Below, piece by piece: positions 8,956-47,222 of a stretch of DNA of 55,355 nt. Both the position numbers and the translations under genes were made by a program. Below the pieces are notes generated by a model. That model was not told the DNA's origin, ran no database searches, and saw nothing but the letters and a program-made list of their open reading frames with translations. The DNA lies in contig JAPYWL010000006.1 in NCBI GenBank assembly GCA_028276365.1, forward strand, positions 1-55,355, in the 5' to 3' direction. The stretch comes from Deltaproteobacteria bacterium (lineage in GTDB: Bacteria > DRYD01). Positions within the stretch are counted from its first letter, which is position 1. The number at the start of each line of letters is the position of its first letter.

Positions 8956-8972
8956 TGTAAAAAAAATGTAAA
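8956..8972. promoter_or_regulatory. Direct-repeat motif TGTAAA-N5-TGTAAA upstream of the M14 peptidase
   Basis: tgtaaa aaaaa tgtaaa; the motif recurs upstream of several genes in the window. Confidence 0.5.
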
Positions 8973-9005
8973 AAAAAAGATAATATGTAATAATAATAAT
9001 TTAGT

Positions 9006-10069
9006 TTATGAAACTGACAATGGATTTAAAGAGGGATTTAACCAAGGATTTAAGGTATTTATATTTTCTTTTGGATTATTAAAATATTGTTCTATTATTT
9101 GTTTAATTTCGGGATCTGCTTGAATTGTTTTAGAATTTATTTCAAAAGGTTTAAGAGTGAAATCCAAGACTTTATTTTGTTTTTTATCATATTTTATTTG
9201 AGAGAATCCTAAATGTTTTGTATATGCTCCCATTTCTACTATATAGGTTTTATGTTCAAAACCTTTTAGGTTGGTTTTTATAATAATAGGATCTGGAGTG
9301 TAATCATGATCATGTCCAGCAAAAACTACATCTATATTTGAAGCTATATCAGGATTATTAGTTAATATTTGTTTAATTTTATTAATTCCTTCATGAGCTA
9401 ATAATATAACTATATTTGATTGAGCTCTAACTTTTGGGATTAATTCTTTTAGAACTTCAGTTATAGGAATTTTAATTGTATCTTTACCTACTTGTGGATT
9501 TGCATCTGTAGCTAATTCAGTAGTACATACGCTAATAAAAGCTATGTTTATTCCATTTTTGTTAAGAATTACATAAGGTAAAATACCATCAGGTAATTTA
9601 TTAGTGGATTTATCCAAAATATTACTATTTAATACTTTAAAATTAGCTTGTTTAACATATTCATTAATTAATGTATTAACACCGTATTGATATTCATGGT
9701 TTCCTGTAGCTGCTAAATCGTATTTTAAGGTATTCATTATTTTTATCATTGGTTTAAAATGATGTTGTTTATCATGTGGAGGATTGTATACTGTATCTCC
9801 TATATCTATTAATAACGAATCTGGATATTGATTTTTCAATTTTTTTATAACAGAAGCAATATAAGGCATACCGCCAGTTGAATCATTGTTGGGATAGTAT
9901 TTACCATGCATATCATTGGTATGAATTATATTTATGTTTATAATATCTTCATTTGAAGGATCTAAATTTAAAGAATCTGAATTTGAATAGTTTAGTTTAT
10001 TTTGGGACTTTGAAAAAAAAAATTATTTATTTTATTTTTGAATTCATTTATTAATTTTTGAATAATCAT
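9006..10069 (-). CDS. 5'-nucleotidase/2',3'-cyclic phosphodiesterase-type metallophosphoesterase, frameshifted in a T10 tract near the 5' end
   Basis: The frame upstream of the track start (9911) reads ...INIIHTNDMHG; also IDIGD, GNHE, LLAHEG, AGHDH. That frame has no start before TAA at 10025-10023; ATG 10069 joins it only if one base is added in the A10 run at 10013-10022. Confidence 0.8.
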
Positions 10070-10111
10070 AGTTTAATAATTAATTAATTTTATTTTTATA
10101 TAATAGAAAAT

Positions 10112-10128
10112 AGTTAATAAAATGTTAA
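10112..10128. promoter_or_regulatory. Direct-repeat motif AGTTAA-N5-TGTTAA between the nucleotidase and groES
   Basis: Its reverse complement TTTAACATTTTATTAAC is identical over 17 bp to the site upstream of sigH (35582-35598). Confidence 0.5.
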
Positions 10129-10215
10129 AAATTGAAATACTATTTTAGGGGTGTATAAAAATTTGATTTTAGGGTATATATATAAATGGACAGAAAGGAA
10201 GGAGGTGTATAGAAA

Positions 10216-10524
10216 ATGGCAACTCAAACATTAAAATTAAGAATGTTAGAAGATAGAGTATTAGTAAAACCAATGCTTCAAGAGGATAAAACAGAAAGTG
10301 GGATATATTTACCAGATAGTGCTAAGGAAAGACCCCAAAAGGGAGAAGTAGTAGAAGTAGGTCCAGGTAAATTATTGGATAATGGACAAAGAGTAGAGTT
10401 AACTGTTAAAAAGGGAGATAAGGTATTATTTGGTAAGTACGCAGGTACTGAAGTAAAATTTAAAGGTGAAGAATATATTATCTTAAGAGAATCTGAAATA
10501 TTAGCAATTATTGAAAGTGAATAA
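10216..10524 (+). CDS. groES: Co-chaperonin GroES
   Basis: [51 protein letters not shown]. Confidence 0.98.
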
Positions 10525-10561
10525 AAAATAAATTATAAGATAGGAGGAGGTGTTAAACTTT

Positions 10562-12214
10562 ATGGCAGGTAAAATGATATTATTTGATACAGAAGCAAGA
10601 CAAGCTTTAGAAAGAGGAATAAAATATGTATATGATGCTGTAAGAGTTACTTTAGGGCCAAAAGGTAGAAATGTAGTTTTAGAAAAGAAATTTGGGAGTC
10701 CATTGATTACAAATGACGGTGTAACTGTTGCAAAAGAAATAGAATTAGCAGATCCAGCAGAAAACATGGGAGCACAATTATTAAAAGAAGTAGCTTCTAA
10801 AACTAATGATATAGCAGGAGATGGGACTACAACTGCTGTAGTTTTAGGTTATAATATTGTTAAAGAAGGATTAAAAGCAATAGCAAGTGGTGCTAATCCT
10901 ATTTATCTTAAAAGAGGAATAGATAAAGCTAAGGAAGTAATTATTGAAGAATTAAAGAAACAAGCAAAAGAAGTGGATTTTGAAGGGAAAACTAAGTCAG
11001 AAATAGATGATTTAGAAAGGGTTGCTACAATAGCTGCTAATAACGACGAAGAAATTGGTAAAATGATAGCTAAAGCTATTAGAATGGTTGGTAAAACGGG
11101 AGTAATTACCATTGAAGAATCTAAATCTTCTCAAACTACTTTAGAGCATGTTGAAGGAATGCAATTTGATAGAGGTTATATTTCTCCATATTTCGTTACT
11201 GATTCTGAAAGAATGGAAACAATATTAGAAAATCCATATATATTAATAACAGAAAAGAAAATAGCTGCAGTTAATGATATAATTGGAATATTGGAAGTAG
11301 TAGTAAGAGAAGGAAAACCTTTATTAATAATTGCAGAAGAAGTAGAAGGTGAAGCTTTAGCTACTTTAGTTGTTAATAAATTAAGAGGGGTTTTAAATGT
11401 ATGTGCTGTTAAAGCTCCTGGGTTTGGTGATAGAAGAAAAGAAATGCTAAAAGATATAGCTATATTAACTGGTGGAGAAGTTATTAATGATGAATTAGGT
11501 ATAAAATTAGAAAACATTAGATCTTTAGAATATTTAGGTAAAGCTGAAAAAGTAAAAGTTACTAAAGAAAATACTACTATAATTGGTGGAAAAGGGGATA
11601 CTACCAAAATAAATGCTAGAATTGAACAAATAAGAAAACAAATAAAAGAAACTGAAAGTGAATTTGATAGAGAAAAACTACAAGAAAGATTAGCAAAATT
11701 AACTGGCGGGGTAGCTGTTATAAAAGTAGGTGCTCCTACTGAAACTGAGTTAAAAGAAAAGAAATTAAGAATGGAAGATTCTTTAAATGCTACTAAAGCA
11801 GCAGTTGAAGAAGGAATTATTCCCGGTGGCGGAACTGCTTTAATTAGATGTATTCCTGCTTTAGAAAAATTAGAAAAAGAATATACTGGAGATATGGCTT
11901 TAGGTATTAGAGTTGTTAGAAATAGCTTAGATAAACCATTAAGACAGATAGCAGAAAACGCAGGATTTGATCCTGGATCTATAGTTGAAGAAGTTAAGAG
12001 ATCTAATGAAACTCATGGTTTTGATGCTGTTAACGGTAAAATAGTTGATATGTTTAAATCTGGTATAATTGACCCATTAAAAGTTACAAGAAGTGCTTTA
12101 GAAAATGCTTGCTCAGTAGCTGGTATGGTATTAACTACTGAGACATTAGTTGCAGAAATCCCAGAAAAAGAAAAAGATAAAGGACAAAGCTATCCACCAA
12201 TGCCTGAATACTAA
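10562..12214 (+). CDS. groEL: Chaperonin GroEL
   Basis: [46 protein letters not shown] 10562 lies downstream of SD GGAGGAGG (the track's GTG at 10550 overlaps the SD). Confidence 0.98.
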
Positions 12215-46090: not shown

Positions 46091-46122
46091 TTTTTATTAA
46101 TAAGTGAGAAATAAAAATTTTA

Positions 46123-46686
46123 TTAGATGCTATTATATCCCATAGTAGCTGCGTTAACTCTTTCTTCAGTGGATGGATGAGATCTTAGGTAAGGGTGTGT
46201 AAAATCCATTGAAGAATTAAATCTTATTAATAGATCTAAAAAAGGTTGTAAAGGTAGGTTAGCCATTTTTAGAGCTCTACCTGCGTAATAATCTGCTTCT
46301 AATTCTTTTTGTTGGTTATATACGTTAGTAGCAAAAACATTATTACCTGACATCCATTGATACATAAATACTTGGGGAATATGGTTTAATACTTCATGAG
46401 CCCATTCATGTGCTAATACCCCAAAAATAGCTTCATAACTTTCATTTTCTATAAACGATGGATCTATGAATACTATTTTTTGGCCTGTAGCCATTGCACC
46501 TAAGTTAGTTGGATATATTTGAACTGTTATATATGTCCCATATAGATAATTTAACTTATTTGCTATATCATTTAATTGATCATTTGTTACTTTTGAATAA
46601 ATGTAATTTTTTGATATTAAAAAGAATAATAAAAATACTATAAAAAACCTGTAAAAAAATGAAAGAATAAATTTAATTTTGCTCAT
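46123..46686 (-). CDS. M48 family metalloprotease, exported
   Basis: GVLAHEWAH, ELEADYYA, SHPSTEER; N-terminal hydrophobic segment. Confidence 0.88.
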   Translation of the reverse strand: MSKIKFILSFFYRFFIVFLLFFLISKNYIYSKVTNDQLNDIANKLNYLYGTYITVQIYPTNLGAMATGQKIVFIDPSFIENESYEAIFGVLAHEWAHEVLNHIPQVFMYQWMSGNNVFATNVYNQQKELEADYYAGRALKMANLPLQPFLDLLIRFNSSMDFTHPYLRSHPSTEERVNAATMGYNSI

Positions 46687-46758
46687 TTTTATCTTTTTTA
46701 TTCTTAAATTTTTATTAATATTAAATTTAATTTATTTTTCTTTTTGAATTTTAGTTTA

Positions 46759-46792
46759 AAAAATAAAGGGGGAAAAAATCCCCCCTTTTTTT
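46759..46792 (-). terminator. Rho-independent terminator of the 99-aa gene
   Basis: Minus strand GGGGGA-TTTTT-TCCCCC followed by TTTATTTTTT, about 30 nt after the stop. Confidence 0.8.
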
Positions 46793-46819
46793 GAATCTTC
46801 TTTGTTAGTTTATAGGTTA

Positions 46820-47119
46820 TTATCCACCGCCGCCTGCTAATGCTTTTGTCCATTGGTTAGCTATTTGGGATTGAGTTTTATAAGCATCTAACCTTGTTTC
46901 TTCATGCATTTTTCTAATAGCTCTATTAGTATCTAATACCATTTTCATCATTTCTTGTTGATGTTTCTTTTCTGCTAATTGTTCAGATAACATTAGATTT
47001 TCCAATTCTCTTCTATTTTCGTTATCTATAGCCCAGGCGCGTGCTTGGTTTATAATAGGTTGCCATTGTTGTTGTCTTAGGAATGGAAGCCATTCAGTGA
47101 AGTCTCCTATACCAAACAT
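46820..47119 (-). CDS. Small helical Q/M-rich hypothetical protein
   Basis: SD AAGGAGGTG, own terminator, higher GC than its flanks, no Cys. Confidence 0.88.
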   Translation of the reverse strand: MFGIGDFTEWLPFLRQQQWQPIINQARAWAIDNENRRELENLMLSEQLAEKKHQQEMMKMVLDTNRAIRKMHEETRLDAYKTQSQIANQWTKALAGGGG

Positions 47120-47205
47120 TTTGTTACACCTCCTTAAAACTTTTTTTCTTTTTTCAATATTATTATATTCATTTTTTTTGAAACTAAATAGTAAATTAGA
47201 TTTTT

Positions 47206-47222
47206 TTTACAATTTTTTAACA
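47206..47222. promoter_or_regulatory. Direct-repeat motif (minus strand TGTTAA-N5-TGTAAA)
   Basis: 86 bp upstream of the ATG at 47119; same orientation and similar distance as at 18785 and 23529. Confidence 0.55.

Follow-up and report, generated by a model that had tools for sequence, protein, structure and literature searches.

A conserved TGTWAA-N5-TGTWAA control site and its candidate WalR-like regulator in a candidate bacterial phylum

A direct repeat of two hexamers, TGTWAA-N5-TGTWAA, is a real and conserved control site ahead of about 60-75 genes in the genome of an uncultured hot-spring bacterium (GenBank assembly GCA_028276365.1, deposited as Deltaproteobacteria bacterium; GTDB lineage DRYD01). 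It was noticed in one contig of that genome, JAPYWL010000006.1 (contig C88 in our numbering), whose 55,355 nucleotides (nt) are called the window throughout. The repeat is probably the tandem binding site of the only OmpR/PhoB-family response regulator that the genome encodes, a protein with a WalR-like DNA-binding domain. The resulting regulon would comprise about 60-75 promoters and would join peptidoglycan remodelling with operons for a flagellar-type basal body, the chaperone and protease genes groES and clpP, a SigH-like sigma factor, and low-complexity proteins specific to the lineage, of which there are dozens. Judged from sequence, it reads as a WalR-type OmpR-family regulon (WalR/MtrA/CtrA-like) in a candidate phylum of 11 known species, that is, as a known kind in a new lineage.

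The assembly consists of 1.59 Mb in 124 contigs, is 87% complete, and has a G+C content of 24% (21% in intergenic DNA). A gene map based on open reading frames (ORFs) called 1461 genes that occupy 89.4% of the bases, leaving 10.6% (168,676 bases) as intergenic. In the collection examined, the candidate phylum comprises 11 species genomes in one order and two families. The family studied here accounts for ten of these in two genera: three genomes in the genus of the genome under study (G000, with its congeners G001 and G002) and seven in a second genus. G010 is a genome of the sister family.

Frequency and form of the motif

How often should such a repeat turn up in DNA this rich in A and T? 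The genome holds 51 exact copies, 47 intergenic and 4 coding. Markov models of order 1 to 5 built from intergenic DNA, the background that the first-pass annotation of the window had recommended, predict 0.44-0.88 intergenic copies, a range that did not change when the simulation was repeated with other code and seeds. Placement, for which that annotation had proposed a test, is biased as well: tandem spacers contain 28 copies in 98.0 kb, divergent spacers 14 in 29.4 kb, and the 107 convergent spacers none in 18.0 kb. About 47-79 of the 683 upstream regions carry the motif. Within the window, the five exact copies compare with 0.21 expected, a number that none of 100 dinucleotide shuffles reached.

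The spacing of the two hexamers is strict. When intergenic copies were counted for every spacer from 0 to 16 nt, N5 gave 47, N4 gave 8, and no other length gave more than 5; inverted arrangements of the hexamers, convergent or divergent, never exceeded 7 at any spacer. In coding DNA, the counts for N3, N6, N9, and N12 track codon periodicity. The two Gs of the motif co-occur: G is paired with G 51 times, where the marginal counts would predict 14. With regard to half-site order, TGTAAA precedes TGTTAA in 25 copies and follows it in 4, while TGTTAA is doubled in 14 and TGTAAA in 8. The consensus is tTGTAAAAAAAATGTTAAaaaa. Both the spacer and the 3' flank are A-rich, and position 7 after the first hexamer is A in 37 of 46 sites. 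A weight matrix made from those 46 sites, which is circular in its invariant columns, yields 79 intergenic and 16 coding matches at 12 bits or more, and 75 intergenic matches at 13 bits.

The motif read backward was tried as a control and set aside, as 12 of its 20 matches in the genome are the real motif 3 nt out of register and not independent of it. One of the 51 exact matches (C84:150-330) is a CRISPR spacer between GTTTAGCTTACCCATAGGGGAATTGAAAG-type repeats; it was taken as a chance match and excluded from the site statistics.

Conservation in relatives

The motif is present in each of the phylum's 11 genomes, with 24-72 exact copies in each of the nine other family genomes and 4 in G010; ten genomes of other phyla contain 1-8 exact copies each. 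The position and orientation of sites ahead of orthologous genes are kept in both genera although the flanking DNA has diverged. For example, the coiled-coil gene at window position 18785 has an exact copy in the same orientation as the gene in all ten family genomes, starting 95-118 nt before the ATG; the encoded proteins are 42-85% identical, and the upstream flanks do not align. Ahead of the SigH-like gene (35703), an exact inverted copy is found at 9/9 orthologous loci, the orthologue of G006 not having been recovered and being absent from this count. At fliF, an exact same-orientation copy starts at -94 to -98 at all eight loci with enough upstream DNA.

Genes for cell wall enzymes show the same tendency with more variation. 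Across 12 loci of M14 peptidases (7687 and its paralogues), the inverted copy is exact at 7, has one mismatch at 4, and is missing at 1. The SLT transglycosylase has 2 exact and 5 one-mismatch copies at its 9 family loci, and the NlpC/P60 gene has an exact copy in G000 and a one-mismatch copy in G001. At orthologous sites the TGT triplets are kept and the A/T flanks drift. In G010, with about 44% G+C in the stretches read, one of the five TGTNAA-type copies lies 82 nt ahead of the flhB orthologue and points the same way as the gene; a second copy matches the fliF site of G000 letter for letter but is located at a contig end. The regulon proposal of the first-pass annotation stood or fell with an excess of the motif upstream of genes and its conservation in relatives, and both are found.

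The candidate regulator

What protein reads this motif? A profile search found a single Trans_reg_C protein in the genome (109.5 bits, at C100:1894-2115). This OmpR-family regulator (C100:1864-2565) has 233 amino acids (aa) and a receiver domain with the usual DD, D, T, and K positions. Only two more receiver domains are encoded, which makes three in all, and each of these two forms a single-domain protein. Among PDB structures, the DNA-binding domain is best matched by Bacillus subtilis YycF/WalR (1.1e-24), then by RegX3, VicR, MtrA, and Staphylococcus aureus WalR. Its recognition helix, RTVDVHIRRLR, differs at two positions from the RTVDVTVRRLR of YycF and VicR. The domain is almost invariant across the family, and the whole protein is 82-84% identical in the second genus, compared with 42-77% for the target proteins, and 67% identical in G010. 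The published WalR box is TGTWAH-N5-TGTWAH, given for VicR of Streptococcus mutans as TGTWAHA-N4-TGTWAHA (PMC4168254).

A single WalR-like OmpR-family regulator and a motif of the published WalR form together led us to assign the one to the other. Two winged-helix domains, each on its own TGTWAA half-site, would bind head to tail at a distance of one helical turn. The regulator would probably also act on replication initiation, as MtrA and CtrA do. The identity of the binder, the sign of regulation, and any effect at the replication origin (oriC) are inferred. The first-pass annotation had compared the repeat to OmpR/PhoB-family boxes (WalR, PhoP, CtrA), and this agrees with the direct repeat, the strict N5 spacing, and the WalR-like domain; a Pho box is not supported, and the CtrA consensus fits only 14 of the 51 sites. 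Its idea that one response regulator links orphan proteins, hydrolases, and sigH gains support, with one candidate regulator in the genome and all three classes of gene behind the motif.

The motif could of course be a genuine cis-element read by some other protein, such as a transcription factor or a nucleoid- or origin-associated protein. Direct repeats of strict 11-bp period, separated by A-rich bases, are what winged-helix domains typically bind in tandem, the motif equals the published WalR box to the letter, and the WalR-like domain of the sole OmpR-family regulator hardly varies within the family. Another reader is therefore rather unlikely, even though the link between regulator and DNA is an indirect one drawn from sequence, the families searched were only Trans_reg_C, Response_reg, Sigma54_DBD, and Sigma54_activat, the regulator's operon lacks a site of its own, and the arrays beside oriC, interleaved with TTGAYAAAANTCAA palindromes (described below), would suit an origin-binding protein.

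A number of observations weigh against assigning the motif to the WalR-like regulator, some concerning the protein and others the sites. With 273.5 bits against a cut-off of 340, the protein does not reach the YycF equivalog model NF040534; its best NCBIfam models, in order YycF, RpaB, MtrA, and PhoB, all score under cut-off. RegX3 and MtrA score about equal to WalR, and the full-length protein has RegX3 and MtrA as its closest PDB structures (MtrA second-best, 2e-59). The MtrA repeats in the literature are GTCACAgcg-like and unlike TGTWAA (PMC4285127). Likeness in the recognition helix does not fix specificity, and G010 has the same helix yet only five TGTNAA-type copies. The spacers of the regulator's operon contain no site with fewer than two mismatches, so autoregulation is unsupported. 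Its kinase-like neighbour lacks a HisKA domain and any conserved histidine in the ten family genomes, reading TTTKAFTET or similar at the H-box position. As for the sites, the NlpC/P60 genes of the second genus have, by eye, TTTACA/TTAACA-type hexamers that are 3 bp apart, not 5, at 5/5 loci (TTTACA twice in one locus). The one-mismatch class in the window is not above chance (12 against 7.98 expected, with 12 of 100 shuffles reaching 12). Finally, a strict two-box DnaA pattern found no cluster in the seven genomes of the second genus, and the origin arrays were seen in one genus only.

The kinase-like neighbour (C100:601-1770, minus strand) is a protein of 389 aa in which HATPase_c is the only domain found. 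It scores 104 bits on HK_WalK, whose cut-off is 725, and is without a convincing membrane helix. It may be a pseudokinase or a modulator. Four canonical HisKA kinases are encoded elsewhere, on C70, C83, C5, and C87.

Promoter architecture

Sites occur in both orientations, and each orientation is conserved gene by gene. In the same-orientation class, the distances from the end of the motif to the ATG cluster at 82-96 nt. A TG-N1-2-TANNNT element lies 33-35 nt past the motif in 9 of 66 sites, with at most 2 at any other offset, and -10-like hexamers accumulate at offsets 36-44. In the second genus, the promoters of the coiled-coil and fliF orthologues show this -10 spacing too. Many inverted sites have a -10-like hexamer 28-31 nt past the motif, at exactly 31 in 8 of 47. 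If the site is taken as 22 bp, made of two 11-bp units that each consist of a hexamer and five A-rich bases, its centre would fall 42-44 bp before the -10 hexamer in either class, at about -55. The regulator would then be positioned just upstream of the -35 region in either orientation. Upstream regions contain hardly any TTGACA (6 in 114 kb). TTWACA was considered as the -35 hexamer and rejected, there being no -10-like peak 16-18 nt after TTAACA or TTTACA.

Two further elements accompany some sites. An AGGAWWW-type box is found 16-18 nt past the motif at C11:4854, C20:10071, C28:593, C3:8053, and C83:36318, and by eye at C67:137. These sites have no other RGGRA at offsets 0-31 except one at offset 9. 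They precede fliF, flhB, and the pilin-like gene, among others, and fliF promoters in the second genus retain the box. The box resembles RNAGGAWWW, the -35 element at sigma-H promoters in Bacillus; together with the motif ahead of the SigH-like gene, it would set up a cascade by way of that gene's product. The second element, TTGGAAACAATTTTGTAACAATT, follows the motif ahead of a small family of paralogues, 312-340 aa long and with signal peptides. It lies past the motif at C83:26560-26650 and C124:95275-95365, and its core occurs three times in the genome, on C20 (near 13180-13290), C83, and C124.

Might the motif do without a dedicated regulator, acting as a general promoter module through the alpha subunit of RNA polymerase, like an UP element, or through phased A-tract curvature? 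Its location some 44-67 bp ahead of the predicted start, whichever way the motif points, would fit, as would the A-rich spacer and 3' flank and the scarcity of TTGACA, so that promoters may lean on upstream elements. The idea is nevertheless improbable in view of the excess of G-G pairs, the retention of TGT in orthologous sites while A/T flanks drift, and the minority of upstream regions that carry the motif. In addition, only 2 of 38 tRNA genes have a site within 200 bp, both facing other genes, and the arrays beside oriC are not promoter-shaped. The assembly lacks a 16S gene, and rRNA promoters play no part in this comparison.

More improbable still is that an alternative sigma factor uses the repeat as its promoter, for instance as a sigma-54-like -24/-12 element. 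The layout of hexamer, N5, and hexamer resembles -24/-12, and flagellar genes are sigma-54 dependent in several phyla. Yet Sigma54_DBD was not found in the 87%-complete genome, the Sigma54_activat matches are weak AAA+ matches, and the motif has TGT rather than GG...GC. Both orientations are conserved (sigH inverted at 9/9 loci, fliF in the same orientation at 8/8), and a separate -10 element lies at a fixed distance downstream.

That AT-rich words cluster by chance in AT-rich intergenic DNA, as the low G+C content and the window's one-mismatch count might suggest, is refuted by the Markov counts (47 against <1), the specificity for N5, and the conservation of orthologous positions in two genera and the 44%-G+C sister family.

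Genes behind the motif

For the flanking genes, annotation covered 40 outside the window and 20 inside. Among the 20 outside genes with a same-orientation site, 14 have no Pfam family, and the rest encode FliF, FlhB, RNase III, ClpP, a metallo-beta-lactamase-fold protein, and an AAA-ATPase/PD-(D/E)XK protein. The other 20 (19 with inverted sites and 1 in the same orientation) include 13 without a family; those with one encode NlpC/P60, polysaccharide deacetylase, SLT, clostripain C11, subtilase S8, DUF7305, and a rod protein. Inside the window, the predicted targets encode an M14 peptidase, GroES, the SigH-like factor, an isochorismatase, a DegT aminotransferase, an EF-hand protein, and four proteins without a family.

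Several of these genes are related to peptidoglycan, namely, those for NlpC/P60, SLT, Polysacc_deac_1, and two Peptidase_M14 proteins, and the SLT and M14 sites are conserved. The SigH-like factor (35703..36569) passes NCBIfam model NF006148 with 297 bits (cut-off 208). The motif also stands ahead of a pilin-like gene, two rod operons, fliF, and flhB. The genome encodes FliF, FlhB, FliG, and four proteins of the rod family (C83:34612-36240, C11:3595-4683, C27:14588-15504, C71:12796-13708, and C97:851-1135), and Flagellin_N and further Flg_bb_rod (hook-type) matches were not found in the 87%-complete assembly. The set may amount to a basal body without flagellin, or its outer components may have diverged beyond recognition.

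The orphan targets are Gly-, Asn-, or Gln-rich or coiled-coil proteins, some in small paralogue groups and most without a signal peptide. The coiled-coil orphan (18785) gave only sub-threshold coiled-coil matches in Pfam and NCBIfam and no usable match in the ESM Atlas. Two orphans with same-orientation sites, 46820-47119(-) of the window and C27:6675-7409, share the N terminus MFGI..(E/T)EWLPFLRQQQ. GFGG or NN repeats occur in several further targets, which are rich in Gly, Asn, or Gln.

Arrays beside the replication origin

The likely oriC of G000 (C122:8402-9620) has 15 DnaA boxes in 263 bp (8402-8664). Beside them, at 8742-9382, are four exact motif copies, two of them forming a four-hexamer block, and three TGTAAT-type copies. 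Eleven TTGAYAAAANTCAA palindromes accompany these copies in repeats of about 265-360 bp. Elsewhere in the genome the palindrome is scattered singly, with at most 3 matches in any other contig against 12 in C122. In G002 (C26:2099-3725), 12 exact copies occur within 1.3 kb beside 14 DnaA boxes, and a 537-bp contig of G001 (C241) has 3 copies beside DnaA boxes. Motif arrays flank the DnaA-box cluster in 3/3 genomes of the genus. Response regulators that bind origins include CtrA, MtrA, ArcA, HP1021, and Spo0A (PMC4285127).

A broader reading

One speculation, which we offer as tentative, is that the only DNA-binding response regulator in this candidate phylum is a CtrA-like master switch that couples replication initiation, cell wall remodelling, and a flagellin-less basal body. 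In such a circuit, four orphan histidine kinases and a conserved His-less kinase-like partner would feed into the regulator, and replication would be coupled through the 7-12 arrayed sites beside oriC. The low-complexity orphans without signal peptides would be external parts or cargo of the basal-body apparatus. The SigH-like factor would form a second, feed-forward tier through the AGGAWWW box at fliF, flhB, and the pilin-like gene.

Why does the regulon matter? One candidate regulator, one box, and about 60-75 promoters would make a nearly complete and testable wiring diagram for an uncultured thermophilic phylum. A WalR-type box kept to the letter far outside the Bacillota bears on the age of the link between WalR/MtrA/CtrA-type regulators, cell wall turnover, and replication. 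Some 30 orphan proteins gain a shared regulatory context, which makes them candidate envelope or appendage components. The origin-flanking arrays, the His-less kinase-like partner, and the many orphan targets alongside flagellin-less basal-body genes are noteworthy in their own right.

Features of the window

The sites in the window are collected in Table 1. The five exact copies that the first-pass annotation had listed were confirmed in position and strand, as were the two variant clusters. Of its one-mismatch copies, those at 10112 and 23430 exist, but the class as a whole shows no excess over chance, so these two are credible only through their position and architecture. The distances from motif end to gene start that it gave are borne out: 91, 82, and 86 nt for the same-orientation genes at 18785, 23529, and 47119, and 70-112 nt for the inverted ones.

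Table 1. Motif copies and predicted promoter elements in the window
Feature	Position	Strand	Setting
Exact TGTAAA-N5-TGTAAA	8956..8972	+	Inverted, 75 nt from ATG of M14 carboxypeptidase gene 7687..8880(-)
One-mismatch AGTTAA-N5-TGTTAA	10112..10128	+	Same orientation, 87 nt upstream of groES 10216..10524
TGTAAA/TGTTAA/TGTAAA/TGTATT hexamer cluster	12893..12937	+	Upstream of orphan gene 12313..12828(-)
Exact motif	15024..15040	-	Divergent spacer between 13782..14918(-) and 15111..15518(+)
Exact motif	18677..18693	+	Same orientation, 91 nt upstream of coiled-coil orphan gene 18785..20035
Predicted extended -10: TG 18727-18728, TATAAT 18733-18738	18727..18738	+	33 nt past the 18677 motif
TTAACA-N5-TTTAGA-N5-TTTACA phased half-sites	20288..20322	-	Inverted, upstream of EF-hand/Ser-rich protein gene 20397..21392
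One-mismatch copy (TGTAAA-N5-TAGTAAA register)	23430..23446	+	Same orientation, 82 nt upstream of 23529..26027
Exact motif	35583..35599	-	Inverted, 103 nt upstream of SigH-like sigma factor gene 35703..36569
Predicted extended -10 TGAATATAAT (minus strand)	47162..47171	-	34 nt past the 47206 motif
Exact motif	47206..47222	-	Divergent spacer between 46820..47119(-) and 47335..47940(+)

Two of the exact copies face genes on both sides. The 15024 site is in the same orientation as the DegT-type aminotransferase gene, 105 nt away, and inverted with respect to the orphan repeat protein gene, 70 nt away on the 15111 side, where a -10-like GATAAT follows 28 nt past the motif. The 47206 site has the orphan gene 46820..47119(-) at 86 nt in the same orientation and the isochorismatase gene at 112 nt in the inverted one. 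The 35583 site shares the last 15 nt of ORF 34146..35597. Both one-mismatch copies have a weight-matrix score of 16.3. That at 10112 is weaker than the exact sites; that at 23430 has TG-TATATA 35 nt downstream and precedes the gene for a Gly-rich orphan of 832 aa. The 12893..12937 cluster, with its N3 pair at 12913, is a variant and was not counted as a canonical site. An extra TTTACA lies 3 nt ahead of the phased half-sites at 20288..20322, within which there is a one-mismatch match at 20297.

Parts of the window were recovered in metatranscriptomes labelled hot springs or freshwater; in four such runs, contigs were 90-99% alike over the genes beginning at 18785 and 20397. These matches are assembled contigs, so neither transcript starts nor strand can be read from them. 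Contig ends at 18726-18766 and 20385-20395 were considered as transcript starts, and nothing was drawn from them, as the DNA there is AT-rich and hard to assemble. The window also contains a transfer-messenger RNA (tmRNA) gene at 22865-23239, without a motif upstream, that encodes the tag ADRELALAA (ARAGORN; Rfam RF00023, 157 bits), and at 48009-52466 a bacterial alpha-2-macroglobulin of 1485 aa with MG2, A2M, TED, and receptor-binding domains. Alpha-2-macroglobulin is usually a diderm feature, and SigH-like and WalR-like proteins are typical of Bacillota.

Comparison with known systems

Which known system does this regulon resemble? The Pho boxes of Escherichia coli PhoB and B. subtilis PhoP are likewise 11-bp-period direct repeats with a TGT core, PhoB is the fourth NCBIfam model for the regulator, and the PhoB and WalR consensus sequences are alike (PMC4168254). 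A Pho regulon is unsupported all the same: profile searches of the 87%-complete genome found neither PstS (PBP_like_2) nor PhoU, and phosphate genes are absent from the 60 flanking genes that were annotated.

In Alphaproteobacteria, genes of the fliF class are under the control of CtrA. This master regulator of the OmpR family has a TTAA-N7-TTAA box of 11-bp period, and it binds the origin and inhibits replication (PMC4285127; PMC8640480). It activates roughly 100 genes, including pilin genes (PMC11264516). The regulon described here is similar in its 11-bp period, its candidate OmpR-family regulator, and its flagellar and pilin-like genes behind the motif. It differs in that TTAA-N7-TTAA is present in only 14/51 sites, those in which both half-sites are TGTTAA, and in that TGT is invariant. 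The regulator protein is closer to WalR, MtrA, and RegX3.

MtrA of Actinobacteria offers another parallel. Also of the OmpR family, it recognizes direct repeats, controls cell wall hydrolases, and binds oriC (PMC4285127; PMC6265350); here, a direct-repeat box stands ahead of cell wall hydrolase genes and, in one genus, copies lie beside the likely oriC. The MtrA boxes, in contrast, are GTCACAgcg-like and dispersed between DnaA boxes (PMC4285127). The TGTWAA copies are gathered in an array of about 0.6-1.3 kb that adjoins the DnaA cluster without entering it, a layout unlike those described for MtrA and CtrA in that review (PMC4285127).

The resemblance to WalR extends to the box itself: all 51 sites fit TGTWAH-N5-TGTWAH, and position 7 is mostly A, which the consensus refined for S. 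mutans also has. For S. aureus, WalR sites have been predicted at 118 intergenic places, orientation is without effect, and sites upstream of the -35 element activate; WalR there also controls dnaA and hup (PMC10746227). Here, too, peptidoglycan hydrolases and a deacetylase are found behind the motif, and sites in either orientation are predicted upstream of the -35 region, as in that account (PMC10746227). Unlike in WalRK, the regulator scores under the YycF cut-off, and its partner is a soluble, HisKA-less protein of 389 aa, whereas WalK is a membrane protein; yycHI-like neighbours were not recognized at the regulator locus. The bacterium belongs to a separate candidate phylum, and its regulon adds flagellar basal-body, SigH-like, and orphan targets as well as arrays beside oriC. 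By membership tests, this is not a WalRK system, but it is predicted to work as WalR or MtrA does.

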